The notes under the pieces are model-generated. The model searched no databases and was not told the DNA's origin. It saw nothing but the letters and a program-made list of their open reading frames with translations. From positions 137,128 to 184,768 of the forward strand of contig CAZWJT010000005.1 of NCBI GenBank assembly GCA_964634935.1: DNA of 47,641 nucleotides, written 5' to 3'. The translations under genes and the position numbers were made by a program. The stretch is from an uncultured Planctomycetia bacterium. Lineage in GTDB: Bacteria > Omnitrophota > Gorgyraeia > Duberdicusellales > Duberdicusellaceae. This document shows positions 27,134 to 47,603 of the stretch, piece after piece. Each line of letters starts with the position of its first letter. Positions within the stretch are counted from its first letter, which is position 1.

Positions 27134-27135
27134 GG

Positions 27136-28152
27136 CTACAAAGTTCTTTCAACTGCAGAAGCGACTCCGCGGAGTTGTTTTACCAGCTCCCCAAATCGTT
27201 CAGGAATGAGCTGCTGAGGGCCGTCGCTCAATGCTTCTTCAGGGTTAGGATGCACTTCAATCAAAAGTCCGTCAGCGCCGGCAGCCACAGCCGCACATGA
27301 GAGAGGAGCAACTAAACCCCACCTGCCGACTGCGTGTGAAGGATCAACAATAATCGGCAAATGAGACAACTTCTTGATTATCGGTACAGCGCTGATATCC
27401 AGCGTATTCCTCGTAGCATCCTCAAAGGTTCGAATACCGCGCTCACAGAGAATCACATTAAAATTACCGCTTGCCAAAATATATTCGGCGCTCATCAACA
27501 ATTCTTTGATTGTCGCACTGAGCCCCCGCTTCAAAATAACAGGCTTGTTGGTTTGCCCAACTTCCTTCAAAAGATGAAAATTCTGCATATTCCGAGCACC
27601 TATCTGCAGTACATCCGCATACTTACTTACCAATGGAACATCGCGCGTATCCATCACTTCGGTAACCGTTACGAGTCCAAATTCCTGGCCGACGGCGGAA
27701 AGTATTTTTAAACCTTCTTCTCCTAACCCCTGGAAAGCATATGGGGATGTTCTCGGTTTAAAAGCACCTCCGCGTAAAAATCCAACTCCGTATTGAGAAA
27801 TTTTCCCGGCAACCGTCCGAAGTTGTTCTTCGGATTCAATTGAACAAGGACCAGCGATTATCGTAACCTTTTTGCCCCCGATCTCAAATCCTTCTCTAAT
27901 CTTAATGACTGAAAGTTGAGGTTTGAAATCCGAAGAAACCAGTTTATAGGGAGCAAGCACTGGCAGAACTTGTTCAACACCAGGGAGGATTTCAAGAGGC
28001 TGAGAACGCAAGATATCTTCTGGCCCGATGACACCGATAATCGTTCGAGAAACACCTTCAGAAACAATCGTTTTTAAGCCAAGCTTATTGACTTTTTCTA
28101 TGATGTAATTTATCTCCCCTGGAGTGGCTCCGGAACGCAGCACTATAATCAT
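27136..28152 (-). CDS. aroF: DAHP synthase, type I-beta with N-terminal regulatory domain
   Basis: IAGPCSIE, GGAFKPRTSPY, QIGARNMQNF, KRG, LCERGIRTF, DPSH and IEVHPNP. Confidence 0.95.
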   Translation of the reverse strand: MIIVLRSGATPGEINYIIEKVNKLGLKTIVSEGVSRTIIGVIGPEDILRSQPLEILPGVEQVLPVLAPYKLVSSDFKPQLSVIKIREGFEIGGKKVTIIAGPCSIESEEQLRTVAGKISQYGVGFLRGGAFKPRTSPYAFQGLGEEGLKILSAVGQEFGLVTVTEVMDTRDVPLVSKYADVLQIGARNMQNFHLLKEVGQTNKPVILKRGLSATIKELLMSAEYILASGNFNVILCERGIRTFEDATRNTLDISAVPIIKKLSHLPIIVDPSHAVGRWGLVAPLSCAAVAAGADGLLIEVHPNPEEALSDGPQQLIPERFGELVKQLRGVASAVERTL

Positions 28153-29249
28153 TGACTTTCTCCTGCAAGATACCGGGAAAGCTCCTTAAAAAAAATCTGA
28201 TTTTCCCGGTGCGTTCCGATGGTAACCCGCAAGTAATTCTGCATGCCCCATCCGCGCATATCCCGAATGATTACCCCTGATTGCAATAAAAATTTTGAAA
28301 GCTTCTCTGCTTCGCTAAAACGAAATAATATGAAGTTGGTGGCGCTCTTCACAAAAAATATTCCCAGCTTCTGGAAGTTTTCATAGAAAAACTTCCGTTC
28401 AGTTTCAATTTCCCGGATAACCTTACGCAGTTGTTTCTTATCGGAGAGCGCGGCAAATGCGGCAACCTGAGCCAGCCGATTGACGTTGAAAGGTTCCCGT
28501 ACTTTATTCATCGCAGCAATGTATTCGTTGCCGGAAACAGCATAACCGATGCGTAAGCCCGCAAGAGCGTATGCTTTTGAAAAAGTACGGGTAAAAATAA
28601 CATTATACCCTTGTTTGAGAAATTCGGCTGTGCGTGGAAAATCAGCGGGCGCAAATTCAAAGTAAGCCTCGTCAAAAAGCACAATGATATCTCGAGGAAT
28701 ACTTTTTAAAAAATTCTCTACCTCTACATGAGTAAGATACGTCCCATTCGGATTATCAGGATTAGCGATAATGATTACTTTAGTCTTGGGGGTAATTGCC
28801 GCGTGGATTGCTTTTAAATCATACCGGAAATCTTTGAATGGAATCTCTCTGGCGAGAATCCCGAGCGATTGCGCTTGAATTTTATACATCAAAAACGTTG
28901 GATAACCAACGATAATTTCCTCGCAACCCGGCTCGACAAATGTCCGCAAAACCAGAGAAATAATCTCATCGGAACCATTACCGAAAATAATTTTTTCCGG
29001 ATCGATCTTCAAAAGCTTTGCCAATTTCATACGCAGGTAGAAACAATCGCCGTAAGGGTATCGATTAATCTGAGCGATTTCTCGTACAATCGCCCGACGA
29101 ACCGCTGCTGAAATAACCATTGGAGATTCATTTGATGCCAGTTTAATAACCCGTGTAAGACCAAGCTCCCGTTTTACTTCCTCAATAGGGCGCCCGGGAA
29201 CATATGTCTGTATATCGGAAAGAATTTCTCGGATCATTCGTTTTGGCAT
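28149..29249 (-). CDS. hisC: Histidinol-phosphate/aromatic aminotransferase (class II PLP)
   Basis: KLASNE, GNGSDE, NPDNPNG, DEAY and RTFSKAYALAGLRIG. Its position between pheA and aroF/tyrA fits the aromatic-aminotransferase role known for such HisC homologs. Confidence 0.92.
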   Translation of the reverse strand: MPKRMIREILSDIQTYVPGRPIEEVKRELGLTRVIKLASNESPMVISAAVRRAIVREIAQINRYPYGDCFYLRMKLAKLLKIDPEKIIFGNGSDEIISLVLRTFVEPGCEEIIVGYPTFLMYKIQAQSLGILAREIPFKDFRYDLKAIHAAITPKTKVIIIANPDNPNGTYLTHVEVENFLKSIPRDIIVLFDEAYFEFAPADFPRTAEFLKQGYNVIFTRTFSKAYALAGLRIGYAVSGNEYIAAMNKVREPFNVNRLAQVAAFAALSDKKQLRKVIREIETERKFFYENFQKLGIFFVKSATNFILFRFSEAEKLSKFLLQSGVIIRDMRGWGMQNYLRVTIGTHRENQIFFKELSRYLAGESQ

Positions 29250-29276
29250 TTCAATTACTCCTGTTTACCGCCATGG

Positions 29277-30338
29277 CTATGCACTGCGCGGATACGAACC
29301 AAGTATTTTAATAAAGGAAGATTTCCTTTCAAGCTCGGTGAGCGCAGATTTTACTTTCCGGTCATTTCGATGACCGACAACGTCGACAAAAAAGTAATAC
29401 TCCCAAGCCTTGCGTTTTGACGGCCGGGATTCTATCTTTGCCAAATTCACGTTATATCTCTTAAAGCAAACCAAGGCTTCGTACAAAGCGCCGACTCTAT
29501 CAGGCACCGAAAAGATGAGAGAAGTTTTATCATTCCCCGTAGCCGGAGCGTCTTTTTGACCAATTACCAAAAATCTGGTGATATTCCGCTCTTTGTCTTG
29601 GATATGTCGTACAAGCACCTTCAAGCGGTAAATTGACGAAACCGCGCCACTGCCCATACAAGCAGAAAATTTATCTTTCTGTGCTGATTCAGCCGCTTTT
29701 GCTGTCGTCGGGCAACTCATAAGCTCCACAGCGGGCAGATGTTCTTGAAGCCACTTACGGCATTGTGCGAATACCTGCGGATGTGAATACACTCGCCTTA
29801 TCTCAGGCAGCTGACAGTTTCCTAAAAGATTATGGGAAACATCGAGGAGAATCTCGGCACAAATCTTCAATTCCGAATCAACAAACATATCAAGCGTGTA
29901 GTTTACCGCTCCTTCTGTGGAATTCTCAACAGGAACGACTCCGTAGTGAGCCTCATCGCGAGCAACCCGAGAAAAAATATCACTGATATCAATACTCGGT
30001 ATAAATTCAACTCCCTTGCCAAACTTTTTTAGGGCGGCCAAATGAGTGAAAGTGGCAACCGGCCCAAGATAACAGACGCGAAGCGTTGATGACAGAGAGA
30101 AAGAAATAGACATAATATGAGTAAAAATTTCCTGCAAAAGCTCCTGGGGGATAAAACCTGGGTTTATTTTCTTAAGCCTCTGAAATATGTATGACTCCCG
30201 CTCTGGAGAATAAGAAGGTTTTTCTATCTTTTGCTTCAGTTTGTTGATTTTCACAGCTACCTGTGCTCGCTCAGTGAGTAACCGCACGAGCCGCTCATCA
30301 ACGGAATCAATCTTCTTGCGTAACTTTTTAAGGTTCAT
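29277..30338 (-). CDS. pheA: Bifunctional chorismate mutase/prephenate dehydratase (P-protein)
   Basis: AroQ N-terminus (LRKKIDSVD..L.ER), VPVENS.EG, SHPQ..AQC, TRF and ACT domain ESRP. Confidence 0.96.
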   Translation of the reverse strand: MNLKKLRKKIDSVDERLVRLLTERAQVAVKINKLKQKIEKPSYSPERESYIFQRLKKINPGFIPQELLQEIFTHIMSISFSLSSTLRVCYLGPVATFTHLAALKKFGKGVEFIPSIDISDIFSRVARDEAHYGVVPVENSTEGAVNYTLDMFVDSELKICAEILLDVSHNLLGNCQLPEIRRVYSHPQVFAQCRKWLQEHLPAVELMSCPTTAKAAESAQKDKFSACMGSGAVSSIYRLKVLVRHIQDKERNITRFLVIGQKDAPATGNDKTSLIFSVPDRVGALYEALVCFKRYNVNLAKIESRPSKRKAWEYYFFVDVVGHRNDRKVKSALTELERKSSFIKILGSYPRSA

Positions 30339-34344: not shown

Positions 34345-34431
34345 TGGTGGGCAGGGGAGGATTCGAACCTCCGAAGCGCGAAGCGCAACAGATTTACAGT
34401 CTGTCCCCGTTGGCCACTTGGGTACCTACCC
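34345..34431 (-). tRNA. tRNA-Tyr(GTA), long variable arm, CCA encoded
   Basis: GGGTAGG/CCTGCCC acceptor stem, ACAGA-CTGTAAA-TCTGT anticodon arm, GGAGG-TTCGAAT-CCTCC T-arm and terminal ACCA. Confidence 0.96.
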
Positions 34432-34509: not shown

Positions 34510-34583
34510 TGGGCCCGCAGGGACTCGAACCCCGGACCAATTGATTATGAGTCAACTGCTCTAACCGACTGAGCTACGGGCCC
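34510..34583 (-). tRNA. tRNA with CAT anticodon, most likely tRNA-Ile2 (lysidine), CCA not encoded
   Basis: GGGCCCG/CGGGCCC acceptor stem and GTTGA-CTCATAA-TCAAT anticodon arm. C4-G69/C5-G68 and the GAGCAG..GACTCATAATC..TTGGTC pattern fit Ile2 better than elongator Met; a G1-C72 pair rules out fMet. Confidence 0.85.
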
Positions 34584-34735: not shown

Positions 34736-35191
34736 CTAGTCTTCCTGGATTTTTTCCGGCTCAAGAGCAAATTGTTGCGACGAGAAAAGATCCGAGGCTA
34801 ACTTGAGATATCGAAATGCCTCGTGGATATCTTTTTTACGCTCATGAAATTGGGAAAGCTTCATATACACGAGAGAAAGATTGTTTATTGCCAGAACATA
34901 ACGGGGATCGAGATCAACCGCTTGCTTTAAGAATAACTCCGCTTGAGCGTAATCTCCTTCTTCCGCCCAATATACCCCCCAATTATTAAGAACAAATTTC
35001 TTATACGCCGGGTTGATGTAAATAGTTTTTTGATAGAGCGTATAGGCACCATCCGCATCTCCTGATTGCTGCGCAGACACCCCTTCATTAAAATAAAGCT
35101 GCGCTTCTCCTTGTGCTGCCGATTGGGCGTATCCCGCACAAGTCACAAAACACAGAAGAAGAATTATGAGGAAGTTCCCGGCTTTACTCAT
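34736..35191 (-). CDS. Small exported TPR protein, function unknown
   Basis: Signal-like N-terminus (FLIILLLCFVTCAGYAQ); TPR pattern YFNEG..A..LYQK.I.INP.Y..NNWGV..G..AE.FLKQAV.LDP.Y..A.NNL; AAGGAGG SD. Confidence 0.82.
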   Translation of the reverse strand: MSKAGNFLIILLLCFVTCAGYAQSAAQGEAQLYFNEGVSAQQSGDADGAYTLYQKTIYINPAYKKFVLNNWGVYWAEEGDYAQAELFLKQAVDLDPRYVLAINNLSLVYMKLSQFHERKKDIHEAFRYLKLASDLFSSQQFALEPEKIQED

Positions 35192-35278: not shown

Positions 35279-35800
35279 TCAGAAAACAATCGTATCCCAG
35301 ATACCTTTCGCCTTGAGGATAAGTTCGATCACTTCACGTACCGCCCCTTTCCCGCCAGGTGCATTGGTTGTATAGGCGCAAATTTCTTTAATTTCTGAGA
35401 CTGCGTTCCTGACCGCAACAGGAAAACCTACTTTTTTAAGGACTGCCCGATCGATAAGATCATCCCCTACAAAACAAATCTTTTCAGGAGAACATTTGTA
35501 TCGTTGTATCATTTTCTCAAAAACAGAAATCTTTGGCCACCCTGACCATACATCAGAAATGCCCATATCGCGTGCCCGTAACTTCAGTACGCGAGAATTC
35601 CTACCTGTCAGAATGGTTATTTTTAAACCGGATCGAATCGCAAAGGCCACCCCGACTCCATCGTGCACATGAAAGGCTTTTATTTCTTTGCCGGAAGAAT
35701 CATAGATAATTTCTCCGCCAGTCAAAACTCCATCGACATCCAGCACAAGAAGTTCTGTGTTTTTTGCCTTCAGTAAAATCTCTGAATTATCTGTCATCAA
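35279..35800 (-). CDS. kdsC: KDO 8-phosphate phosphatase (HAD family)
   Basis: LDVDGVLT, FHVHDG.G, ILTGR, VGDDLID and GGKGAVRE. Confidence 0.95.
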   Translation of the reverse strand: MMTDNSEILLKAKNTELLVLDVDGVLTGGEIIYDSSGKEIKAFHVHDGVGVAFAIRSGLKITILTGRNSRVLKLRARDMGISDVWSGWPKISVFEKMIQRYKCSPEKICFVGDDLIDRAVLKKVGFPVAVRNAVSEIKEICAYTTNAPGGKGAVREVIELILKAKGIWDTIVF

Positions 35801-36771
35801 ACAATGCCTGCCTTTAAAAGATCTTGCACGTCCACCATCCCCACCGGATGCTGCTTCCTGTCTACAACAGGAACTTCGTCTATCTTCTTGTCTTGAAGAA
35901 TTCTTAAAACCTCCGAAGCAAGCATATCCATGCCGACAGTCACGGGATTTTCCGTCATTACCTCTTTGACTGTTTTATGCAAAAGGTTCTTCTCGCTTTC
36001 TAAGCGCCTGCGTAAATCACCATCGGTAAAAATACCGATAAGCCTGCCTTGTGTATCAACAACCGAAGCTGCTCCGGCGCGTGCCTGCGTGATCGCGAGC
36101 AAAACCTTTGTAAGTTTTGTTTGCCCACCTACAATGGGGTTGGACTTCCCTTTGCGCATTACATCGCGTACCTGGAGTAATAATTTTTTTCCCAAGCTTC
36201 CCTGCGGATGCACCGAGGCAAAATCCTCCATGCGGAATTTTTTGATTCTTTGCACGGTAACACTGAGCGCGTCGCATAATGCCAGCATTGCCGTGGTTGA
36301 CGTAGTAGGAGCTAAACCCAGCGGACAAGCTTCCTTTTTAATATCAATCACTAAAGATACATCGGCGTATTCCGCGAGAGTGGATGCCTTATTCCCGGTA
36401 ATCGCGATCAGTAAAGCGCCGATCCGCTTTAAAAAAGGAACAAGGCTTTTCATTTCTTCGGTCTCACCGCTATACGACAACATAACAACCACATCTCCCC
36501 TGACTACTCTTCCGAGATCACCATGAAATGCCTCTGCCGGATGCAGCCACATGCTCGGAGTCCCCGTTGAAGACAGAGTGGCTGAAAATTTTTGGGCGAT
36601 AATGCCCGCCTTACCCATTCCGGTTGTAATAACCCGTGACCTACAGCGACGAAGCATCATTACTGCTCGTATAAAATGCTCATTCAAACAACTTTTGAGC
36701 GCCAGCAGAGCATCCGCCTCTATCGTTAAAACTTCCTGCCCCCACTGAAGAATCCTCTCTTTATGCTTCAT
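35797..36771 (-). CDS. kdsD: Arabinose-5-phosphate isomerase (SIS + 2 CBS domains)
   Basis: TGMGKAG, STGTP..LHPAEA.HGDLG, SYSGET, EACPLGLAPTTST, HPQGSLG and GIFTDGDLRR. Likely start ATG 36771 (ORF track 36792). Confidence 0.95.
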   Translation of the reverse strand: MKHKERILQWGQEVLTIEADALLALKSCLNEHFIRAVMMLRRCRSRVITTGMGKAGIIAQKFSATLSSTGTPSMWLHPAEAFHGDLGRVVRGDVVVMLSYSGETEEMKSLVPFLKRIGALLIAITGNKASTLAEYADVSLVIDIKKEACPLGLAPTTSTTAMLALCDALSVTVQRIKKFRMEDFASVHPQGSLGKKLLLQVRDVMRKGKSNPIVGGQTKLTKVLLAITQARAGAASVVDTQGRLIGIFTDGDLRRRLESEKNLLHKTVKEVMTENPVTVGMDMLASEVLRILQDKKIDEVPVVDRKQHPVGMVDVQDLLKAGIV

Positions 36772-37570
36772 GAGCAATATGGTTGACTTCAATTACCTTT
36801 CTCAGTATTTTCTCAACATTTCCCAAAGCGATGCTCGTTGATTTATCACTCAAAGCCTTGTGCGGATCGGGATGAACTTCTAAAAATAAGCCATCAACTC
36901 CAAATGCGGCAGCAGCCCGGCAAAGCGGGAAAACGAATTGCCGGTCACCCCCGGATATCCCCTGAGCTGCGGATGGTTTTTGCACTGAATGTGTCCCGTC
37001 AAAAATAACAGGATACCCGAAACAGGAAAGAATCCCAAATGAACGAAAATCTACAACCAGGTTGTTATAACCAAATGAGGTCCCGCGCTCAGTGATAAAA
37101 AGATCCTTATTGCCCGTGGATTCCACTTTCTCAATGATATACCGGACATCCCACGGAGCGATGAACTGAGCTTTTTTTATATTAATTATCTTTTTTGTCC
37201 TTGCTGCCGCAAGAATTAAGTCTGTTTGCCGGCATAAAAACGCCGGTATCTGGATAACATCCAAAATGTCTTGAGCCGGCTCAACCTGTGAAACACAGTG
37301 AACATCGCTGAGAATTCGGATTCCCAGGGTCTTTTTTACTTTCTCAAGAATTCTCAATCCCGGCATAAGACCTGGACCGCGATAGGAAGAAGCTGCTGTC
37401 CTGTTTGCCTTATCGTAGCTGGCTTTAAAGAAAAAATCGACTGCATACTTTTGAGTAATATCCTTAAGCACCGAAGCGATTTCCAAAGTAGAACGGGCAC
37501 TTTCTATAATACAAGGACCAGCGATAAAGATAAATTTTTTACGTGTTACTTTGTTCTTTTTGTATGGCAT
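36761..37570 (-). CDS. kdsA: KDO 8-phosphate synthase
   Basis: [48 protein letters not shown] and DGTHSVQ. Confidence 0.97.
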
Positions 37571-39162
37571 TGTAACGCTGCTTTAATGAAATCTCTAAAA
37601 AGCGGATGCGCTTTATCCGGTTTTGATTTAAATTCCGGATGGAATTGACACCCGACAAACCATGGATGATCTCGCAATTCAATGATCTCCACAAGCCCCC
37701 GTTCAGAAAAAATACCTGAAAGTACCAATCCAGCTTTCTCAAAAACATCCCGATACTTATTATTAAATTCATAACGATGCCGGTGGCGTTCCTGAATAAT
37801 TTTTTTCTTGTAAGCAGTGTATGCGAGCGTATGTTCTTTGAGCGTACACGGATAAGCTCCCAGTCGCATCGTTCCTCCAAGTTCAGAAATATTCCGTTGC
37901 TCGCTCAGTAACGAGATGACTGGGTAGGAAGTATCTTTATTAAATTCGGTGGAATTGGCATCTTTGAAACCACAAACCGCACGGGCAAATTCAATAACCG
38001 CGGTTTGCATTCCTAAACAAATCCCAAAAAGCGGTATATTCTGGGTGCGCGCGTAGTGAATCGCTGCAATCTTTCCCTCAATACCCCGGCTGCCAAATCC
38101 TCCAGGAATTAAAATTCCATGTACATCTTTCAGAAAATATTCTGCATCTTTTTTCTCAATATCTTCCGAATCGATTCTCTCCAATACAAGGCGCGTGTCA
38201 TTCGCTAAAGCTCCATGCCGCAAAGATTCATAGATCGACTTATAGGCATCTTGCAGCTGGATATATTTACCTACGACGGCAATACGAACCTCCCAGCGTG
38301 GGTTTGCCGCGCGCTCTACAACCGTATGGGCCCAGTCTTTCAGATTGCTTGCCAGAAATTTGAGATGAAGCTTACGCAAAATAATTTCATCAAGCTCCTG
38401 CTCTTTATAAATGAGGGGGATGCTGTAGATATCTTTGACATCAATTGCTTCGATAACGCAATCTTCTTCGACATTACAAAATAATCCTATCTTCTCTTTG
38501 ACTTTCTTGCTTAATGGCCTTTCGGTACGACAGAGAAGAATCTCTGGTTGAATACCAATTTCCCTCAATTTTCCGACGCTGTGTTGAGTTGGTTTTGTCT
38601 TAATTTCGTCAGCCGCTGAAATATACGGTATAAGGCTCATATGAATATTCAGGGCGTTTTTAACGCCCAGCTCAAGCTTTAACTGGCGGATTGCTTCCAA
38701 AAACGGCAGACTTTCAATATCCCCTACGGTTCCGCCAATCTCGACCAAAACAACTTTTGCTTTCCCGCTTGCTACTCTTTTCAGCATTGACTTTATTTCA
38801 TCAGTAATATGAGGAACCACCTGAACAGTTTCCCCTAAGAATTCGCCTTTGCGCTCTTTGGAAATCACGGAATAATACACCTTGCCGGTGGTGATATTGT
38901 TATCTTTACTGGCAACGATTGAAGTAAATCGTTCGTAATGCCCTAAATCCAGGTCTGTTTCCGCTCCATCCTCGGTGACATAAACTTCTCCATGCTGATG
39001 CGGGTTCATCGTGCCGGGATCAACATTAATATATGGATCACACTTAATCACGTTTACCTTAATCCCCCGCGATTCAAGAAGTCTTCCGATTGATGCGGCG
39101 GCAATTCCCTTACCTAAGCTTGAAACTACTCCACCGGTAATAAAAATATATTTTTTTGCCAT
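37546..39162 (-). CDS. pyrG: CTP synthase
   Basis: [53 protein letters not shown] and QFHPEF. Start ATG 39162 (ORF track 39192). Confidence 0.98.
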
Positions 39163-39163
39163 T

Positions 39164-39898
39164 TTAAGTATTTCGACGCAACAGTTCTTCAACCCGAATT
39201 AAATCTTCCGCGGTGTCAACCCCGCATGTCTCATGATTCGTTTCGATTGTTTTAATGCGCAGTCCGGCTTCCAACACCCGAAGTTGTTCTAGTTTCTCTG
39301 CGCTTTCCAAAACACCCGGGATAAGCTTTGGAAATTTTTCCAAGAACCACTCTCGATAAGCATAAATTCCAAGGTGTTTATAACGCAGGATATCTTGGTC
39401 ATTATCGCGCAAATATGGTATCGTTGCACGCGAAAAATAAAGGGCATAACCATGCCGATCAATGACAACTTTGACTACAGATGGATTGGTAACTTCTTCC
39501 GTGCGCTCAATCTTCTTTATCACCGTTGCCATGGGCAAGGAATAATCCTCTTTTTGTAATAGTTGAACGAGCCCATCAATCGTCTCTCGATGAATCAGTG
39601 GTTCATCAGCTTGGATATTCACCACAATATCCGCTGGTATGCCTTGAATGACTTCCGCAATGCGCTCAGTGCCTGAGGAATGTTTTGGCGAAGTAAGATA
39701 CACTCGCGGAGAAAACTTTTTGCACACCGTAAGAAGCTCCTCGTCATCACAGGCAATAACCAAATCGGAGAGCGTTGAAGCTCGCTGTGCTGCTTCCCAG
39801 GTCCATTGAATCAATGGCTTTCCAAGAATATTCCTTAAAAGCTTCTTGGCTAGTCTCTGCGAATGAAGACGCGCGGGGATTACCCCCAAAACCTTCAT
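39164..39898 (-). CDS. kdsB: 3-deoxy-manno-octulosonate cytidylyltransferase
   Basis: [44 protein letters not shown] and LEQLRVLE. Confidence 0.96.
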
Positions 39899-40947
39899 AG
39901 TTTACTGAAATAAACGTCGTGGATATCTTCGAGGCGTTCTTTAAATTCCCAGGGGCTAACTGTTGAAACTCCAAATTTTCCAACTACAATTCCTGCTGCC
40001 ACATTCGCAAGTGCTGCCGCCTCCAGAAAATCACCTCCGCACGCAAGAGCTGCCGTAAACACAGCAATAACGGTGTCCCCTGCTCCGGACACATCGAAAA
40101 CCTCCAAAGCGAACGTCGGCAGATGAAACTCTCCTCGATCTTTCAAAAACAACGACATCCCCTCTTCGCCCCGGGTAATCAGAAGTGCCTGCGGACATAA
40201 ACGTTCCATAATTAAATCTTTTACGATGGAAATATCTTCTTTCTTGCGGATTCTAAAGTTAGCTGCGTTTTGGGCCTCTTTCAGGTTCGGCGTTAAGGCA
40301 GTGACATTTTTATATAAATCAAAATGATCTTCTTTCGGATCAACGGTAACTATCTTCTTCTTTTTATTACAGAGTGGCAATATCTCTTCGAGAACTCGAG
40401 CGTTTATTACTCCTTTCCCATAATCTTCGATAATGAAAGCATCAAAAAGATCAATATTCTTCTGAATCAACTGAATAATCTTTTCACTGACCCGAGACGA
40501 TAATTCCTCACGTGATTCCCAATCAATACGCACAATTTGCTGATGCTGCCCAACAATCCTTGTCTTTAAAGAAGTCGGGCGCAGGGAATCTCGGATAACA
40601 AACTCGCTTCCAAGGTGCTGTTCCCGCGCTAAAGCGAGCAAACGCGATCCATAATGATCCTTCCCCACTACTCCACAGAGGGCGGCATTACTCCCTAAGC
40701 TTGCAAGATTATGAGCCACATTGGAAGCACCGCCTAAAAGATAGCTCTCCTTGTGCGCCCAAACAACCGGCACAGGAGCTTCGGGGGAAAGACGCTCAGC
40801 GCTTCCGTAAATATAGTGGTCAAGAATCAGGTCACCGATAACAAGAATGCGTGTCTTTTTTATATGCGCAAGGATCTTGTAAAGCGTGTGCAGGTCACAT
40901 TTAAGCTTCTTTTCCATTTTCTTAATATTTTTTGAGGATTTTATCAT
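39895..40947 (-). CDS. rfaE1: D-glycero-beta-D-manno-heptose-7-phosphate kinase (RfaE/HldE domain I, stand-alone)
   Basis: IGDLILD.Y..G..RLSPEAPVPV, GGASNVA.N, EDYGKG, VDPK, TPNLKEA and FDVSGAGDTV. No adenylyltransferase domain; start may be 40917. Confidence 0.92.
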   Translation of the reverse strand: MIKSSKNIKKMEKKLKCDLHTLYKILAHIKKTRILVIGDLILDHYIYGSAERLSPEAPVPVVWAHKESYLLGGASNVAHNLASLGSNAALCGVVGKDHYGSRLLALAREQHLGSEFVIRDSLRPTSLKTRIVGQHQQIVRIDWESREELSSRVSEKIIQLIQKNIDLFDAFIIEDYGKGVINARVLEEILPLCNKKKKIVTVDPKEDHFDLYKNVTALTPNLKEAQNAANFRIRKKEDISIVKDLIMERLCPQALLITRGEEGMSLFLKDRGEFHLPTFALEVFDVSGAGDTVIAVFTAALACGGDFLEAAALANVAAGIVVGKFGVSTVSPWEFKERLEDIHDVYFSKL

Positions 40948-41005
40948 AGAAGCTTATGTTTGGCAAATAAAATAAAGGCGGCTACAAAGAAAGGGGCTGA
41001 AGAAG

Positions 41006-42031
41006 CTAAAGTATCTCTTTGGCCTTGGAAAATACTTCCCGGGGGGTGATAGACCGAATACACAAAAAATCGTTCACGCACTCATGGGCCCGACAAACGG
41101 CACAGCCAGAATCCTTATGAAAATAATATGCTCTATCGCCTAAGACTTTCCAGCGCTTCGGAGAAAGCCCTGGTTGTTTCCTGCCAAAAAGAGTAATAAC
41201 CGGCGTGCCAAAAGCTCCGGCGATATGCCCAAGTCCGGAATCATTCCCGATAAAAATAGACGCTCGATTCAACAAAGAAATAGCCTGACGGAGATTTGTT
41301 TGGCCACAGAGATTGATCACTGAGCCTGCAAAGCCAGCGCAGATTGTGCCGGCCGATTCGGAATCATCGGTCGAGCCAATTAAAATAATCTGTCTATTCA
41401 GCTGGGCTTGAACCATCTGGCACAATTCGATAAAATTTTGTACAGGCCACAGCTTTGAGAAACAGCTTGCCCCGATCCCGAGAACAACCGGTGAAGAAAT
41501 CTGGTGTTTGCGAAAAAAGTTATCTGCCCATTTCTCGGCCTCCGGATAAACCGGAACAAAAAGACGCTCTGTCTGCACCGGAATGCCCGCCCGCGAAAGA
41601 AGCATGAGCGTATAATCACGCTCATGGTACAACCCAAGATGTTTCTCATGAAAAAAAGACTTCGTGAGCAGGAATCCGCATTTTCGATTCCAGCCAATCC
41701 GCACCCTTGCTCCGCTTAAAAAAGCAAGAAGATGTGCTCGGTTGGTGGGATGTAGCACAACTACCAGATCAAATTTCTTCTTCCGCAATCTAAGACCAAA
41801 CTGCATGGTCGCTGAAAATGAAGGGTGCTTCTTCTTATCATATACGATAACTTCGTTGAGAAACGGGTTAGCCGCAACAATATCATACCCCGCAGGCGCA
41901 CAGAGAAAAACGATATTACTATGAGGAGCATAGAGGCGAAGATTTTCAACAACTGGAGTAGAAAGAACTGCGTCTCCGATGCGATCCGTACGAATAACTA
42001 GAATATTCCGCAATCTTTCTGGCTGTAGCAT
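41006..42031 (-). CDS. Glycosyltransferase family 9 (LPS heptosyltransferase-like)
   Basis: RTDRIGDAVLSTP, GAS..SKLWP, GQTNL and NDSGLGH.A..GTP..TLFG. Likely start ATG 42031 via TAATG overlap (ORF track 42040). Confidence 0.9.
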   Translation of the reverse strand: MLQPERLRNILVIRTDRIGDAVLSTPVVENLRLYAPHSNIVFLCAPAGYDIVAANPFLNEVIVYDKKKHPSFSATMQFGLRLRKKKFDLVVVLHPTNRAHLLAFLSGARVRIGWNRKCGFLLTKSFFHEKHLGLYHERDYTLMLLSRAGIPVQTERLFVPVYPEAEKWADNFFRKHQISSPVVLGIGASCFSKLWPVQNFIELCQMVQAQLNRQIILIGSTDDSESAGTICAGFAGSVINLCGQTNLRQAISLLNRASIFIGNDSGLGHIAGAFGTPVITLFGRKQPGLSPKRWKVLGDRAYYFHKDSGCAVCRAHECVNDFLCIRSITPREVFSKAKEIL

Positions 42032-42963
42032 TACGCACATATTTTTCTGAGCGCCGAAGAAAGTTGCTCAGGAAGAATCTCGCGTATGCAACGTTGGGCA
42101 GATTCTGAACATGCGCTTTGCATACAGGGAGAACATTGAACTTGGGAATGAACCACGATGTGCTTCTGACTGAACGGACCGTAGAGAACCGGCGATGTCG
42201 GTCCAAAAATTCCTACGGTAGGAATATCTAGAAGACTGGCGATATGTAAAAGCGCTGAATCAACCCCCATGAAAGCCAGGGCGTATTCTTTTAACAAGAA
42301 AAAAATATCAGCAATCTCGGTTTCTCCGGCGAGGTTAATCATATTTTCATTCGCTATTTCATCAATCGCATTCTTGTTATCGGAGGTAGCCAGAAAAACA
42401 AAAGTAAATTGACCTTGAAAAGATGCCATGACTCTTGAAAATTCAGAGATCGGATACGATTTCAAAGCGCTCCTTGAATGAATACTGACAAACACATACT
42501 TTTTGTTTCCTAAAATAAGACGAAAATGCTCCCGCCTGCGTGCTGGGATAAACGGAACTAGCGGTTTTGCCTTGGTGTTATCGTTGACGAGTCTTTTGAT
42601 AAGAGAGCGGTTTCTCAAGGTCAGATGAAGAGAATCGGGAAACATACGCACCCACGAAGTAACCCGCTGAGCACCACAGAGATAGGCAAACGCTGAATTT
42701 TTAAAATCGGCGACAAGATAAAATTTTCCGAAGAGCCCACGGCAGAAATCAATCTTTTCTCGGATGGCAAAATCTTTACGATATACCAAAATTTCTCGGA
42801 ACTGGTCAAAGCTACGCAAAAAAACCTCTGTTGACGGAGAAGCTACGGCATAAAAATAACTCTCGGGGTAATTTGCCGCGAGAACTCCAACCGCCGGGAA
42901 CGCAAGAAGCGTATCGCCGATGTTGGAAGGAAAAACAATCAGAATATCCCGCCGCTTGCTCAT
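42031..42963 (-). CDS. Glycosyltransferase family 9, divergent and shortened
   Basis: SNIGDTLLA, LKSYP, NLAGET and VDSALLHIA..IPTVGIFGPTS..YGP. Confidence 0.82.
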   Translation of the reverse strand: MSKRRDILIVFPSNIGDTLLAFPAVGVLAANYPESYFYAVASPSTEVFLRSFDQFREILVYRKDFAIREKIDFCRGLFGKFYLVADFKNSAFAYLCGAQRVTSWVRMFPDSLHLTLRNRSLIKRLVNDNTKAKPLVPFIPARRREHFRLILGNKKYVFVSIHSRSALKSYPISEFSRVMASFQGQFTFVFLATSDNKNAIDEIANENMINLAGETEIADIFFLLKEYALAFMGVDSALLHIASLLDIPTVGIFGPTSPVLYGPFSQKHIVVHSQVQCSPCMQSACSESAQRCIREILPEQLSSALRKICA

Positions 42964-43988
42964 ATCCGTAAAATCTGGTGAACCTTTCCGACAACTTCTT
43001 CCGGAGTAATCTCACTCATACAAGAAGTTTTATGACACGAATGCACATAACACGGTTTTGCGCAGTTGATTTCTTTTTCAATCACGTAACTAGCCCCTTT
43101 GCCGCGCGGTCCAGTCAAAGCTGATGAGGTCGGCCCGAACAAGGAAAGCGTCCTGCCGCAAACCGCGCTGCATAAATGCATCGCTCCGGTATCGGCCGAA
43201 ATAAAAAGATGCAATCTTTTTAAAAATGCGGCAAATTCTCGCAGTGAAAGTTTTCCTGCGAGGCTACAAGGCTTATAATGCATATGTGAAACAATTTTAT
43301 CGCAAAGGCTTATTTCCTTTTCAGTACCAGTCAAAAAAACCATGACCCCCTCCGCCATTAATTGATCTGCGAGTTGAGCATAGTGCCCATACGGCCATTG
43401 CTTCAACTCCCAATTCGCTCCCGGATGGATACCGATGAAATGGCGATAGGAAGAAAATGGCGCGAGCAGCTTGCTGCTCGCTCGCACTTCTTGTTCTTCC
43501 AGAAAAACCTCAGCGAATCTCTCTTGCACATCAATATGCAAAGGTTTTAGCAGAAGCAAATACTTATCCATTCGATGCATGTCGTTATGAGCAGGAACCA
43601 TGGTATCTACTAAAAACTTTGTTTTCGTTCTTTGAAAACCTACGAGTCTGCGTATTCCGGAAAGTCTACAGAGGAGGGCGCGAGTAAATGAACGATGGAT
43701 CAAAAGAGCGGTATTAAATCTTTTCCTGCGCAGCATCTGGACGAAAAGCAAACGAGCCGCTAAACTCTTTTGCTCTTTTTTCTCATCAAACTCAATCAGC
43801 TCATCAATAAAAGGATTACCCAGAAGGATGTCCTTCTGTCGTTTATTGACTAAAGCCCCGAGATAACACCCGGGATAAAATTTCTTGATAGCCCTAAAGA
43901 AAGGCGTAGTCAATAATACGTCCCCAAGCCAATTGACCTCAACAACCAAAATTCTTTTTTCCATAGACGCTTTCCGCCCGAGTGCCAT
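42960..43988 (-). CDS. waaF: Glycosyltransferase family 9, LPS heptosyltransferase II-like
   Basis: VNWLGDVLLTTP, HPGANWELKQWP, AGKLSL and DTGAMH..LFGPTS. The NWLGD motif is typical of WaaF-like members; the exact acceptor step is uncertain. Confidence 0.75.
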   Translation of the reverse strand: MALGRKASMEKRILVVEVNWLGDVLLTTPFFRAIKKFYPGCYLGALVNKRQKDILLGNPFIDELIEFDEKKEQKSLAARLLFVQMLRRKRFNTALLIHRSFTRALLCRLSGIRRLVGFQRTKTKFLVDTMVPAHNDMHRMDKYLLLLKPLHIDVQERFAEVFLEEQEVRASSKLLAPFSSYRHFIGIHPGANWELKQWPYGHYAQLADQLMAEGVMVFLTGTEKEISLCDKIVSHMHYKPCSLAGKLSLREFAAFLKRLHLFISADTGAMHLCSAVCGRTLSLFGPTSSALTGPRGKGASYVIEKEINCAKPCYVHSCHKTSCMSEITPEEVVGKVHQILRI

Positions 43989-44021: not shown

Positions 44022-45194
44022 TTAAAATCCTCGTAATTTTTTCAGAATATCCGTTGCTTTTTGCTTATCCCGGCTGGAAAGCTCTTTTCCAACTGCAAGC
44101 CCCAAGTATTTAATTGCTTCTTCTTTATTCGCCTTATTATAGTGTGCAAGACCTAAGTGGTATAGGATTTCCCCGTTATCCTTAGCAAGAACATATGCTT
44201 TTTTAAAGGCATCCAGCGCTTGGTCCATATTCCCGGAAGACATATGGGTTAATCCAAGCGTATCGAGAAAATAAGGATTATCAGGAAAAGCTGCGACTGC
44301 TTTCTGAACCAGAGGAATCGCCTCTTTGAGATCAGTCATAAGAAGCGCCAGATTATTCTGAGCCATAGCAATGATAGGAGCCACATCGACAATCTGCTTC
44401 AGCTGTGTTTTTGCTACTTCCGCATTTCCACGCTGTAAATTAAGCATTGCTAAATTATAGAGGCGCGCTAAGTTTGGATTTGCATCAGAAAGTTCTTTGT
44501 AGCCCTCAGCAGCATCTTTTGCCCACTTATCTTGTTCCGAAGAAGGGATAATACCCAGATAACTCTTTGCGATACGACTGGTAGGATTTGCCTGCAAAAC
44601 TTTCTTAAAATGAGTAACAGCCCGCTCATATTGATTGGTGCGATAGTATGCCTGGGCAAGCATTTCTTCAATCAAAGCAAAATCCGGAGTTTTTTCCAGA
44701 ATCTTCTCGCACATACTGATGACACCGCGGTCATCACCGTTAAACAGGTATGCGTAAGCCAGAAGAATCGTTACTGAGTAATTCCCCGAATCGGTTAACA
44801 AAACCTCTTTTCCCAATCGAATCGCGTCATTGTAATTCCGGGCGTTAAAATACGCGGAAGCAAGCCGGCTTTTCAAAATATTATTTTGAGGATCTTTAGC
44901 TAGCTCACGCTGTAATTCGCGAATTTTTGATTCTTGAAGCGTGACGATATTCACATCTCGGGGATTGAGAGTCGCCGCATCGGTTTGCGTAGGAACAAAT
45001 CGGCGATAATTTGTCCTGCGTTCGAAAAGAATCCGTCTTCCTTCATCGCCTAAATCAATGAGCACCTGGGCGATGGCGTCCCGTTTTCCCTTCACTTCAG
45101 CCTGATCATAAATAAATTTTCCAACTACTCCGGTAAGGCCAAGTAACACTCCTACATTCAGCATAAAGAACGCAAAAATCTTAAATTTACTCAT
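44022..45194 (-). CDS. Membrane-anchored multi-TPR protein
   Basis: N-terminal hydrophobic segment (residues ~6-29), then about 8 TPR-like repeats, e.g. LAQAYY..NQY..AV..FKKVL..NP, NNLALL and DTLG..H..G..ALDAFKKA; GGGAGG SD. Confidence 0.85.
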   Translation of the reverse strand: MSKFKIFAFFMLNVGVLLGLTGVVGKFIYDQAEVKGKRDAIAQVLIDLGDEGRRILFERRTNYRRFVPTQTDAATLNPRDVNIVTLQESKIRELQRELAKDPQNNILKSRLASAYFNARNYNDAIRLGKEVLLTDSGNYSVTILLAYAYLFNGDDRGVISMCEKILEKTPDFALIEEMLAQAYYRTNQYERAVTHFKKVLQANPTSRIAKSYLGIIPSSEQDKWAKDAAEGYKELSDANPNLARLYNLAMLNLQRGNAEVAKTQLKQIVDVAPIIAMAQNNLALLMTDLKEAIPLVQKAVAAFPDNPYFLDTLGLTHMSSGNMDQALDAFKKAYVLAKDNGEILYHLGLAHYNKANKEEAIKYLGLAVGKELSSRDKQKATDILKKLRGF

Positions 45195-45275: not shown

Positions 45276-47603
45276 TTATTTGGCAGGGAATTTCACCTGG
45301 GGTTCAGATTCTTGCTTTTCAATCTTGTCGAGTTCTTCGAGGTTATAGCGCGCAGGGAAAAACATCGGGTCAACCTCTAAAGCCTTCAACCAAGATGCCC
45401 GTGCTTTGCTGAAATTATGCATCAGCGCGTAAACATATCCAAGATCGTAGTGCCCCTGGGCAAGAAACGGACTATTTTCGATTTCCTTCTGAAGTTCTGA
45501 AAGCGCAAGATCAAATCGCTTGACGGTCAAGTATAAAAAGCCAAGCTGTTTATGAATACCTCCGAGGTTCGGTTGTATTTTCAACCCATAGTGAAGAGTT
45601 TGGATTGCTTCTTCAACAAATCCCTTCTGGTTGTATTCTTGAGACTTCCGAAAATATTCCGTGCTTAAGTTTAAACTTCCAATGACCCGGTTTATATCTT
45701 CGCGGGTAAGCTGCTCTGTGGTACCATAAAATTTCCGGTCAAATATCGGTTGGTACACAGTCGTCCGGTACCGTTCGATATTCTTCTTTGAATCTTTAAA
45801 ACGATAGACCCGGTAGTAGGAATTCTGATAAACAAGCTCAAAATTTTTCAGACGCTCGGGATAAAACTGAAAGGTAAAGACTAAATCGGAATCCTTGATG
45901 TCCGTTTTCCCGGCTATGAAACTATACGAATCGTTGCTCCGGTCAAGAAAAATCCTGCTTGTGTATACAAAGTAATCGACCCCGTATTTTCTGCAAAAAT
46001 CAGCGAATTGATCCTCATCAGAAAAAAGGCTGAAGATAAATTCTTTTACCTTCAAACGAAGCCTGGTGGTTTCAAACTTCGAGTGAATGACAATCGGCCT
46101 TTGAGCGTAAGCTGCAATGTTGGCAGAAAAACCGAAATCAGCCAGGAAAACACTCGTTGGTTCCGTAGAAGAACGTATCCAGGCAAAAAGATTTTTGGGG
46201 TTTACGTCTAAATCCGGTAACGTCTGTTGTGGAGAAGAAAAATGCTTATAGACAAAAGTTTTGAAAGCTGTCGGTTTACTTACGGATAAAAACTGTCCAA
46301 TCTCTAAAAAGAGAAGAAGCCCAACCAACCCCAAAATCACCCTGCTTTTCGTCTTCTGAATAAGGGAACCCGCTACAAGCGCTAAAAAAAACACAAGAAA
46401 AACACCGTTTCGCCGAACAAGAAAAAACAATACAAGAAAAACAACTGTCATAAAAACGAGAACAATATCGAATTTAATCCGGTAGCGCCTGGCAAAAAGA
46501 AAGCTGAGCGCGGCGGTAACCAACAAGGGAAAAAAGTTAAGCACAATGTAGGCAAGGTCTGGAGAATGAAACTCCTCAATCCACATAACCCTTGCCTCAT
46601 ACGGAAGAAGGTGCGGATTGTCGGGCTTTATACCAAGAAACCTAAGTTTGTGGAAAAAAAGATTAAAAATATGAGCGTAAGAATCCGCAAGGGGAAAACT
46701 GGTTAAAAGACCAATGACCATCGTTCCAATCAAGGTGATTTTCGCAGTACACAAGTTCTTCGAGCACAAAACGGCATAAATCGAGAGCCCGAAACAAAGA
46801 ATCATCGGGAAAGATACGATAAAATTATTCTGACGCAAAAATGGATTCAGGAGTGAGAAAATCGCCAGGAAACCAGTCCCATACCAAATCTTTTCTTTTA
46901 TTTCGCCTAAACTTTCTCTGGCAAAGACCGCTTTCAGTACGAGTGCAAAAACAAACAAAAGTAAGAAAAATCGGCTCAAATGCCAGGAAATAAGCGCTAT
47001 CGCTATGGAAAAAGCCCATAGCAGAGAAAATAGGATTTTTTTGTATCCGCCAGGGGGGGTGCGAATAAAAAAGAAATAGAAACCAAAGAACAGAAAAGGA
47101 AGAGCAAAATCTTCACTCAGGTAATTGCCGATGGTTCGGCCGAATGCGGGAACCGCAAAGGCATAGAAAAACGCAGAAAACAAAGCTGCAAAATCATCAC
47201 GCCAAAAGTTCCGAGCCACGAAAAAAACAGCCAGAATCGACAGAGATGAGAAGAAACAAACAAAGTACAAAAGAAAAGTATGAAAACTCACTTCGGGGGA
47301 GATAAAGCGGAACAAACTCCCTGTCACAAATTCCATGAATGTAGTAAGCGACTTCTCCACGTTGAGACCTTCTGGATACTGCAACGCCCTATCAACAGAT
47401 GGAATGGGTTTCCCTGCAGCAACAAGCTTGGCAAATCTATATTGAAGTGCTCCTTCAGAATTAAACAAACAGACGTCGCTCTTGGGATTGTAGAGGGGGT
47501 ATCTCCGAAACAGTTGGACCTTATAGAAAGCTACATAGGTATAAAGAAGCAGAAGAAAACCGAGAAAAATCAAAGGGGCATACTTTTTCTGCATGGCGAG
47601 CAT
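45276..47603 (-). CDS. GT-C superfamily membrane glycosyltransferase, DPY19-like/STT3-related, with C-terminal TPR domain (775 aa)
   Basis: Multi-TM hydrophobic residues ~10-440; loop-1 FNSEGALQY and DRALQYPEG; RTIGNYLSEDFALPF; soluble domain WIRSSTEPTSVFLADFG..RPIVIHSKFE..LR; FELVYQNSYYRV; about 3 TPRs at residues ~648-757. GT-C fold is well supported; donor and acceptor are unknown. Confidence 0.8.
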   Translation of the reverse strand: MLAMQKKYAPLIFLGFLLLLYTYVAFYKVQLFRRYPLYNPKSDVCLFNSEGALQYRFAKLVAAGKPIPSVDRALQYPEGLNVEKSLTTFMEFVTGSLFRFISPEVSFHTFLLYFVCFFSSLSILAVFFVARNFWRDDFAALFSAFFYAFAVPAFGRTIGNYLSEDFALPFLFFGFYFFFIRTPPGGYKKILFSLLWAFSIAIALISWHLSRFFLLLFVFALVLKAVFARESLGEIKEKIWYGTGFLAIFSLLNPFLRQNNFIVSFPMILCFGLSIYAVLCSKNLCTAKITLIGTMVIGLLTSFPLADSYAHIFNLFFHKLRFLGIKPDNPHLLPYEARVMWIEEFHSPDLAYIVLNFFPLLVTAALSFLFARRYRIKFDIVLVFMTVVFLVLFFLVRRNGVFLVFFLALVAGSLIQKTKSRVILGLVGLLLFLEIGQFLSVSKPTAFKTFVYKHFSSPQQTLPDLDVNPKNLFAWIRSSTEPTSVFLADFGFSANIAAYAQRPIVIHSKFETTRLRLKVKEFIFSLFSDEDQFADFCRKYGVDYFVYTSRIFLDRSNDSYSFIAGKTDIKDSDLVFTFQFYPERLKNFELVYQNSYYRVYRFKDSKKNIERYRTTVYQPIFDRKFYGTTEQLTREDINRVIGSLNLSTEYFRKSQEYNQKGFVEEAIQTLHYGLKIQPNLGGIHKQLGFLYLTVKRFDLALSELQKEIENSPFLAQGHYDLGYVYALMHNFSKARASWLKALEVDPMFFPARYNLEELDKIEKQESEPQVKFPAK

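Follow-up and report, generated by a model that had tools for sequence, protein, structure and literature searches.

Proteins of the DPY19 family are tryptophan C-mannosyltransferases, classified in CAZy family GT98 (PMC6801728). Tryptophan C-mannosylation has been described as confined to metazoa and alveolates (PMC6801728), and a recent review treats eukaryotic examples and Ebola virus only, with no prokaryotic enzyme discussed (PMC12990085). Searches of the accessible literature turned up neither an account of DPY19 homologues in bacteria nor one of bacterial Trp C-glycosylation. The present analysis concerns an open reading frame (ORF) on the minus strand at positions 45276-47603 of a 47,641-nucleotide stretch (the window) of contig CAZWJT010000005.1, from an uncultured bacterium of the Omnitrophota. 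Its 775-residue product is a true DPY19 homologue, with a match far beyond chance. Taken together, sequence, structural model and analogy make it likely, though not certain, that it is an active DPY19-lineage periplasmic glycosyltransferase of the GT-C class, predicted to act most probably on proteins.

Three further groups of described enzymes are relevant for comparison. The oligosaccharyltransferases (OSTs) STT3, AglB and PglB (GT66) fall in the same GT-C branch as the bacterial family, with 13 transmembrane (TM) helices and a related dome domain (Foldseek E ~1e-14), and have in common with it a carboxylate in external loop 1 (EL1), an Arg and a Glu in EL2 and an Arg in TM11 (PMC6801728); the bacterial family differs in lacking their WWDYG and their DNE or DxD motifs, and matches them less well than DPY19 in both sequence and structure. 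The protein O-mannosyltransferases TMTC1-4 and TMEM260 resemble the ORF product in their layout, an N-terminal GT-C membrane domain followed by luminal or periplasmic tetratricopeptide repeats (TPRs) (PMC7801869, PMC10214176), and full-length TMTC-like proteins are known in prokaryotes, where they are uncharacterised (PMC7801869). In contrast to the ORF product, which is of the DPY19/STT3 type with 13 helices and a dome, their catalytic domains belong to the PMT/ArnT clan (GT105, GT39, GT83) with 11 TM helices; TMTC and PMT proteins show no meaningful sequence likeness to it, and the GT-C plus TPR layout alone is held in common. ArnT (GT83) and the mycobacterial arabinosyltransferases (Emb, AftA/D) are likewise bacterial, periplasm-facing GT-C enzymes that use polyprenyl-monophosphate sugars, and the core fold of the dome is common to DPY19 and the arabinosyltransferases (PMC10154233). 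They differ in acting on lipid or glycan acceptors, and the ORF gives no sequence match to this group and a weak structural match to AftA.

With DPY19 itself, represented here by Caenorhabditis elegans DPY-19 (CeDPY19), human DPY19L1-L4, the Pfam family PF10034 and the structures 7ZLG-7ZLJ, the homology extends across the whole 13-TM core and the luminal dome. Conserved bacterial counterparts exist for Glu71, the Rx(5-6)L(R)E motif, Arg471, Trp262, His375, Lys383 and the His575-Arg584 loop, and the same topology and a lipid-monophosphate sugar donor would be expected. The bacterial protein differs in its C-terminal TPRs, in a shorter EL1 without the Cys-rich insert, and in the absence of the Lys473 clamp, the ExE motif and the invariant cysteines; it would work in the periplasm rather than the endoplasmic reticulum, with polyprenol instead of dolichol as donor lipid. 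The layout of the ORF is as follows.

45276..47603, minus strand: complete ORF with an ATG start, 775 amino acids, encoding the DPY19-like GT-C glycosyltransferase with its C-terminal TPR domain (ORF call, Pfam, AlphaFold2 model)
46284..47603, minus strand: GT-C core in the membrane, residues 1-440 (AlphaFold2 secondary structure, hhalign, Foldseek)
Residues ~34-106 and ~307-349, within the GT-C core: long loops EL1 and EL5 (AlphaFold2 model)
45759..46283, minus strand: putatively periplasmic alpha/beta dome, residues 441-615, the most DPY19-like region (AlphaFold2 strands and helices)
45306..45704, minus strand: C-terminal domain of three TPRs, residues ~634-766 (Pfam, consensus-TPR matches in the PDB, AlphaFold2 hairpins)

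Sequence homology and fold

The best Pfam-A match of the 775-residue protein is PF10034 (Dpy19; E = 3.9e-19, 68.7 bits, gathering cutoff 27.2), and in the same search STT3 was absent even at E <= 10 and PMT, PMT_2 and ArnT were also unmatched. Dpy19 was matched by all 18 aligned members of the bacterial family (best E = 1.6e-27); STT3 was matched in addition by two of the 18 and PMT by one (E = 0.0028), always more weakly than Dpy19. A word-indexed search recovered 30 relatives at 27-51% identity, each of which carries a precomputed PF10034 match. An alignment of 18 bacterial relatives, covering the membrane and dome region, was compared by hhalign with an alignment of 17 full-length CeDPY19 and animal DPY19L1 sequences, giving a probability of 99.87% and E = 1.9e-31 over 561 aligned columns, near the full length of both families. 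The profile built from the 18 bacterial sequences retrieved C. elegans DPY-19 (7ZLG) from the PDB with E = 6.4e-26 and 94 bits, profile positions 108-562 pairing with chain residues 163-619 in one stretch. STT3 proteins followed at 65-50 bits, below CeDPY19, and ArnT and PMT were unmatched at E <= 1. These results bear out the original prediction, made from the letters alone, that a bacterial DPY19 homologue lies at 45276-47603, and they place it with Dpy19 rather than with STT3, AglB or ArnT.

The resemblance is of a remote kind, overall identity to eukaryotic DPY19 amounting to ~16-19%. BLASTP against zebra-finch DPY19L1 found the dome as its sole match (E = 1e-8, 24% identity, 139 amino acids), and a phmmer search of the PDB with the membrane domain as a single sequence gave chance matches only; the likeness is therefore seen at the profile level alone. 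A profile of the N-terminal 135 residues failed to reach CeDPY19, and the mapping of Glu71 comes solely from the profile-profile alignment. The DPY19L1 motifs cited in the original prediction do exist, and the bird and frog proteins carry them in the order given: FRTEMGLYY, DKLTEYPLVIN, RVMWTPPLRESFSYPF, WQFAQFVL, AHIGNLL, RPIVNHPHYEDAGLR and FTTVFENSNYKV. The human form of the last cited block, FTTVFQNSVYKV, was compared with the bird version only. In the profile-profile alignment each bacterial block is paired with the partner named for it, and the pairs are colinear as claimed. Because Pfam already detects the domain in the family, public annotation is enough to reveal the homology, which is therefore no categorical novelty, and bacterial members may already be present in CAZy or InterPro. 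What is new is a bacterial, TPR-fused, uncharacterised family of DPY19-lineage glycosyltransferases.

The fold was modelled with AlphaFold2 from a 31-sequence alignment (mean predicted local distance difference test score, pLDDT, 90.2; predicted TM-score, pTM, 0.87). In the model the 13 membrane-region helices are followed by an alpha/beta domain (~445-615), and residues 634-766 form helical hairpins. In a Foldseek search of the PDB, ranks 1-22 are all STT3, DPY19, AglB and PglB chains, with TPR entries coming after them. The comparison is given below with target-normalised TM-scores, unless marked TMq, and root-mean-square deviations (rmsd).

CeDPY19: E ~6e-15 to 4e-14, TM-score 0.69-0.71, rmsd 5.3-5.6 A
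STT3A/B, best chains: E ~5e-15 to 2e-13, TM-score 0.63-0.65, rmsd 6.3-7.2 A
AglB: E 5e-11 to 3e-9, TM-score 0.43-0.46, rmsd 7.4-12.7 A
PglB: E 2.5e-7 to 1.4e-6, TM-score 0.47-0.49, rmsd 7.2-8.4 A
AftA: E 1.6e-3, TM-score 0.40, TMq 0.34, rmsd 10.5 A

Since DPY19, STT3, AglB and PglB fill all the top places, the modelled protein is within the DPY19/STT3 branch of GT-C. The structural comparison proposed in the original prediction favours CeDPY19, which has the best TM-score and the lowest rmsd, although the E-values of STT3 and DPY19 tie. DPY19 is thus the closest relative by sequence profile, TM-score and rmsd, while structure alone would not separate it from STT3. The C-terminal TPRs, the size and phyletic breadth of the family described below, and the near-equal structural closeness of STT3 all go beyond the original prediction.

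It is very improbable that the protein is an oligosaccharyltransferase like STT3, AglB or PglB, which would transfer a glycan from polyprenyl-diphosphate to Asn. This assignment could draw on the equal Foldseek E-values of STT3A/B and DPY19, on the retrieval of STT3 by the family profile at 65-50 bits and on the weak Pfam STT3 matches in two of the 18 members, but Pfam, the PDB profile search, TM-score and rmsd are all on the side of DPY19, and the diagnostic motifs point the same way. The WWDYG motif of STT3 binds the +2 Ser/Thr; the corresponding region of the ORF product reads LADFG (residues 487-491) and is not conserved, the Y-equivalent position being F, I, Y, M or V. Just downstream of this region stands an H-x-x-[FY]-E-x4-R loop, the one in which the bacterial family and DPY19 agree most strongly, and it has no STT3 counterpart. 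The EL2 motif is Rx6DNE in OST and Rx6LRE in DPY19 (PMC6801728). The family consensus in EL2 is R...YLREDFALPF, and the ORF at 45276-47603 reads YLSEDF, with a spacer one residue shorter than in Rx6LRE. EL2 is accordingly of the DPY19 type, L(R/S)E and not the DNE or DxD of the oligosaccharyltransferases, and therefore lacks the first of the two metal-ligand acidic residues of OST; by analogy with DPY19, activity would probably be metal-free.

The C-terminal domain was recognised by Pfam-A, in which TPR_11, TPR_2 and TPR_1 match residues ~656-746. NCBIfam has no model matching the catalytic part, and its matches to the 775-residue protein are TPR families below threshold. By homology, EL1, EL2, EL5, the dome and the TPRs would all face the periplasm, the TPR domain because it follows directly after the dome with no transmembrane helix between. 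Pfam also gives a sub-threshold match to DUF6798 (PF20604; 21.7 against 26.9 bits) at window positions 46077-46193, residues 471-509. The same domain is assigned to some animal DPY19L1 proteins (P0106, P0118, P0131), and DUF6798 may be just the start of the DPY19/GT-C dome.

The bacterial family and its active-site residues

HMMER was run exhaustively over 1.84 billion cluster representatives (50%-identity clusters) and gave 2757 matches at E <= 1e-3, of which 1369 reach E <= 1e-10 and 762 reach E <= 1e-30. The matches listed, the best 150, all have E <= 2.5e-133, and nearly all of them span the full profile. The relatives come from at least 10 phyla, all of them from metagenome-assembled genomes (MAGs). 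Those found in GTDB species representatives belong to MAGs of Pirellulales/Planctomycetota, Thermodesulfobacteriota, Firestonebacteria, Kiritimatiellia, Gemmatimonadales, Glassbacteria, Fibrobacterota, Eisenbacteria and Spirochaetia; the scan used a 7-sequence alignment and two peptide patterns, and the 21 loci that it recovered are a lower bound. NCBI entries from Firestonebacteria and WOR-3 are named merely 'tetratricopeptide repeat protein'. Judged from these sequences, the bacterial DPY19-like family is large and under purifying selection. Two paralogues stand on separate contigs of the Pirellulales MAG CAYUIE01 (L002 8001-10316 and L018 8001-10328), and the family can therefore be multi-copy within a genome.

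Conservation was counted over 176 diverse bacterial members, 31 aligned sequences and 145 representatives from the exhaustive search, with ~25-50% overall identity. The positions concerned in the window are the following.

47454..47456, minus strand: codon of E50, counterpart of the CeDPY19 catalytic base Glu71 (hhalign)
47112..47138, minus strand: EL2 motif R156...L-S-E164, counterpart of the DPY19 signature Rx6LRE, R211...E220 (PDB profile match, hhalign)
46983..46985, minus strand: codon of W207, counterpart of CeDPY19 Trp262 (PDB profile match, hhalign)
46581..46649, minus strand: EL5 block K319...P327...(F/Y)335...W341, in which K319 is the counterpart of K383 (hhalign)
46410..46412, minus strand: codon of R398, counterpart of CeDPY19 Arg471 (PDB profile match, hhalign)
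46056..46085, minus strand: loop H507-S-K-F510-E511-T-T-R-L-R516, counterpart of CeDPY19 His575-Arg584 (PDB profile match, hhalign)

In CeDPY19, Glu71 is the catalytic base; E71A/Q/L/M are dead and E71D keeps ~80% activity (PMC10154233, PMC6801728). E50, paired in the original prediction with the loop-1 Glu proposed as catalytic base, indeed aligns with Glu71, and the position is E in 153, D in 16 and a gap in five of the 176 members. This alternation parallels the animal enzymes, in which the catalytic carboxylate is Glu in DPY19L1 and Asp in DPY19L4 (PMC10154233). D71, the counterpart of the conserved EL1 residue Asp98, is kept in 172. The donor-binding residues behave similarly. Arg211 contacts the donor phosphate and Trp(+3), R211A and E220A are dead (PMC10154233, PMC6801728), and the counterparts R156 and E164 are R in 163 and E in 168 members. 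Trp262 hydrogen-bonds the donor phosphate (PMC10154233), and W207 is W in 175. Arg471 forms a salt bridge to the donor phosphate, R471A/Q abolishing activity (PMC10154233, PMC6801728), and R398 is R in 175. H311 and K319, paired with the conserved His375 and Lys383, are kept in 168 and 169 members, respectively. On the acceptor side, the CeDPY19 loop His575-Arg584 (Pro576, Tyr578) touches the acceptor Trp(0) and the donor, with Tyr578 in the Trp(0) groove (PMC10154233). In the corresponding dome loop H507-R516, E511 and R516 are each present in 171 members, and position 510, the counterpart of Tyr578 and F in this ORF, is F/Y/W in 163.

Overall, the catalytic and donor-binding residues are kept in ~93-99% of these divergent members. 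Such retention at ~25-50% identity speaks strongly against a catalytically dead DPY19-like scaffold or chaperone in which the TPRs would be the functional part, an explanation that is scarcely credible even though the enzyme activity of human DPY19L2 and DPY19L4 lacks direct proof (PMC10154233) and the protein is annotated merely as a TPR protein. The TPRs are, moreover, absent from part of the family: a C-terminal extension of at least 100 amino acids, with TPRs straight after the dome, is found in 139 of the 176 members, but in 20 the extension is shorter than 40 amino acids and these members are without TPRs.

LepA of the window is 62-66% identical to proteins all named Candidatus Omnitrophota, and the G+C content of the DPY19-like gene region (0.42) differs little from that of the remaining sequence of the window. 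The possibilities that the contig is a contaminant or derives from a eukaryote were considered and ruled out: Rho, release factor 1, a trp operon, genes for the 3-deoxy-D-manno-octulosonic acid (Kdo) and heptose moieties of lipopolysaccharide (LPS), and tRNAs form a typical bacterial chromosome.

Proposed reaction and alternative acceptors

By analogy with CeDPY19, the ORF product would reside in the inner membrane with its catalytic loops, alpha/beta dome and three TPRs facing the periplasm. R398, R156 and the indole NH of W207 would hold the phosphate of a polyprenyl-monophosphate hexose that has been flipped to the periplasmic face. The acceptor, an exported protein that the TPRs may recruit, would place an unfolded segment in the groove between EL5 and the loop H507-R516, and E50 would act as general acid/base, a single sugar being transferred with inversion. 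Both the lipid-monophosphate donor and the protein acceptor are suggested by comparison with described enzymes; the GT-C plus luminal TPR layout, as in TMTC1-4 and TMEM260, favours a polypeptide acceptor. The guarded proposal of the original prediction, that the ORF may encode an enzyme either of prokaryotic C-glycosylation or of some novel periplasmic glycosylation, is supported by the family-wide conservation of catalytic and donor residues, with the qualification that the WxxW determinant Lys473 is not conserved.

The leading specific candidate, to be regarded as tentative, is C-glycosylation of exported proteins at C2 of the Trp indole, with a bacterial polyprenyl-phosphate hexose and a sequon unlike WxxW/C. 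It would be consistent with the retention of the catalytic Glu, both Arg residues, the phosphate-binding Trp and the acceptor-contacting HxxYE...R loop (PMC10154233), with the E/D alternation at position 50 (PMC10154233), and with the aromatic residues that may line the acceptor groove: W341 is present in 176 of 176 members, position 335 is F/Y/W in 145, and position 510 is aromatic like Tyr578. The Glu and Arg residues at these sites are, in contrast, common across the DPY19/STT3 branch (PMC6801728), and therefore do not by themselves specify the acceptor atom.

Several other observations, together with the tied Foldseek E-values, weigh against the general assignment as an active DPY19-lineage periplasmic glycosyltransferase; of these, the Lys473 mismatch, the register of the aromatic groove, the lack of WxxW-rich neighbours and the silence of the literature count against Trp C-glycosylation in particular. 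In CeDPY19, Lys473 forms a cation-pi clamp on Trp(+3) of the WxxW sequon and its alanine mutant is nearly inactive (PMC10154233); its bacterial counterpart, G400, is variable (S in 41, E in 25, H in 12, G in 11, V in 11 and M in 10 members, and others), and the position of the +3 selector Leu474 is V, I or P in the bacterial family. This mismatch at Lys473 and Leu474 bears on sequon specificity and not on membership of the fold family. In hhalign, P334 and M340 are the partners of Tyr395 and Phe401 of the Trp(0) groove. From the sequences, EL5 may plausibly be misaligned by one residue, because the aromatic positions 335 and 341 have the same spacing of six as Tyr395 and Phe401 and would then be their counterparts; the mapping of the aromatic groove thus requires this shift. 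The cysteines invariant in animal DPY19 (C142, C156, C397, C481, C621, C630, C650) are not conserved: C397 pairs with E336 and C142 and C156 fall in the insert absent from the bacterial proteins (hhalign), the six cysteines of the 775-residue protein being at positions 45, 116, 270, 280, 285 and 537. The ExE motif is not conserved either, with E63 and R64 in a gap and E65 paired with V44 (hhalign), although it is dispensable in DPY-19, where E63A and E65A are tolerated (PMC6801728). The topology rests on homology, a positive-inside count on crude helix boundaries being uninformative. The genomic context adds little support. A polyprenyl-phosphate-hexose synthase was not securely identified near the gene, where there is one weak candidate of glycosyltransferase family 2 (GT2), and the gene neighbourhood is not conserved at the 21 other loci, which show occasional TPR proteins and unrelated HDOD, MFS and MsrAB proteins. 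No WxxW/WxxC-rich protein adjoins any of the 21, the maximum being two motifs per protein, reached by one family member and one neighbour with an FGE-sulfatase domain. To this is added the silence of the searchable literature on bacterial Trp C-glycosylation.

The lack of conservation in the Trp(+3) pocket also leaves room for a second, somewhat less probable alternative, in which the same fold and donor type serve another protein side chain, by Ser/Thr O-glycosylation in the manner of TMTC, TMEM260 and PMT or at another nucleophile. A GT-C domain with luminal TPRs is typical of protein O-mannosyltransferases (PMC7801869, PMC10214176), and an EL1 carboxylate is found in GT-C active sites whatever linkage they form, be it O, N or C (PMC6801728, PMC12990085). 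The absence of meaningful PMT/TMTC likeness (PMT in one of 18 members at E = 0.0028, none among the PDB profile matches) and the DPY19 type of the acceptor-reading loop argue against it.

In its broadest form, the hypothesis is that C-glycosylation of tryptophan, or of a different unusual acceptor, takes place on proteins of the periplasm or cell surface in bacteria of many uncultured phyla, that DPY19 goes back to an old GT-C lineage of prokaryotes whose sister group is the oligosaccharyltransferases, and that the TPR tail selects the substrate instead of the WxxW +3 pocket; this is a speculative proposal that we consider rather doubtful as it stands. If true, bacteria may carry out a protein modification thought exclusive to eukaryotes, and DPY19 would be not a eukaryotic invention but an ancient prokaryotic lineage. 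The family offers a concrete route to ask whether prokaryotes C-glycosylate proteins, and bacterial orthologues, possibly more tractable, for studying the mechanism and structure of carbon-carbon glycosyl transfer. It bears on the divergence of the C-, N- and O-linked protein glycosylation machineries within GT-C and provides a function class for hundreds of proteins labelled only 'tetratricopeptide repeat protein'. It would also add a periplasmic protein-glycosylation system to the poorly understood Omnitrophota, Planctomycetota, Firestonebacteria and WOR-3.

Genomic surroundings

The DPY19-like gene heads a same-strand run comprising a PrsT-like TPR protein, three family 9 glycosyltransferase (GT9) heptosyltransferases, an HldE-type kinase, KdsB, PyrG, KdsA, KdsD and KdsC. 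Scans for promoters and terminators around the gene gave signals no greater than the shuffle expectation. Its immediate neighbour is the following.

44022..45194, minus strand: PrsT-like TPR protein of 390 amino acids with an N-terminal hydrophobic anchor, 81 bp downstream of the DPY19-like gene (TIGR02917, 120 bits, cutoff 312)

This 390-residue TPR protein is a possible functional partner, its membership of the system being uncertain; TPR-protein neighbours occur at three of the 21 other family loci. The upstream flank, past the end of the window, encodes a divergent RsmB/F methyltransferase, EpsI, an exosortase and an exopolysaccharide (EPS) glycosyltransferase/flippase cluster, the exosortase, EpsI and EPS glycosyltransferase genes being ~1.1 kb from the DPY19-like gene.

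The position of the gene between the EPS/exosortase locus and the LPS inner-core genes would suit the decoration of a non-protein acceptor in the manner of ArnT and the arabinosyltransferases, whether the LPS core, lipid A, an exopolysaccharide or some other glycan of the envelope. The core fold of the dome held in common with the arabinosyltransferases (PMC10154233) and the weak Foldseek match to AftA point in the same direction. An acceptor of this kind is nevertheless unlikely: the LPS/EPS neighbourhood is kept at none of the 21 other loci, no ArnT sequence match was found, and both the TPR domains and the DPY19-type peptide-reading loop indicate a polypeptide acceptor. The LPS-core/exosortase context was accordingly dropped as family-level evidence, being absent from the 21 loci, and context says little about function because the local gene order does not recur there.

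The LPS inner-core locus is compact (window 35279-43988, minus strand). It consists of three tandem GT9 heptosyltransferase paralogues, an HldE-type PfkB kinase, KdsB, KdsA, KdsD (SIS+CBS) and a KdsC-like HAD phosphatase, with pyrG (CTP synthase) between kdsB and kdsA. On the other side, the flanking stretch L001 (1-8858) carries an exosortase, XrtA/XrtD-like and below cutoffs, and an EPS cluster of GT2, two GT4, GT2, a polysaccharide deacetylase, an LpxG/YaeI-like phosphoesterase and a Wzx-like flippase. A 241-residue GT2 in this stretch (L001 4834-5559, plus strand) is weakly ArnC-like (55.6 bits, cutoff 529) and weakly dolichyl-phosphate hexose transferase-like; from its sequence it might be the maker of the lipid-phosphate sugar donor. 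Components of PEP-CTERM/exosortase type are thus present on both sides of the DPY19-like gene, the exosortase upstream and the PrsT-like protein downstream. PEP-CTERM proteins could be a substrate class, a linkage that was not seen at the 21 other loci.

The window is strictly co-directional, since 44 of its 45 ORFs of at least 150 amino acids (window 1-47641) are on the minus strand and the GC skew is negative in all 2-kb bins. The sole plus-strand ORF, 35930-36526, lies antisense within kdsD and is probably spurious. A complete-looking trpG-D-C-F-B-A operon with aroA, and a separate cluster of 3-deoxy-D-arabino-heptulosonate 7-phosphate (DAHP) synthase, an aminotransferase, PheA and TyrA, occupy window positions 6746-11741 and 26285-30338 (minus strand), and from this gene content the organism appears prototrophic for aromatic amino acids. 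Two tRNA genes (Rfam RF00005; window 34348-34431 and 34510-34583, minus strand; 55.6 and 73.6 bits) are located between the genes of a zinc-ribbon protein and a small TPR protein. Two more small TPR proteins are encoded at window 21066-21902 and 34736-35191 (minus strand), and the region is unusually rich in TPR proteins.

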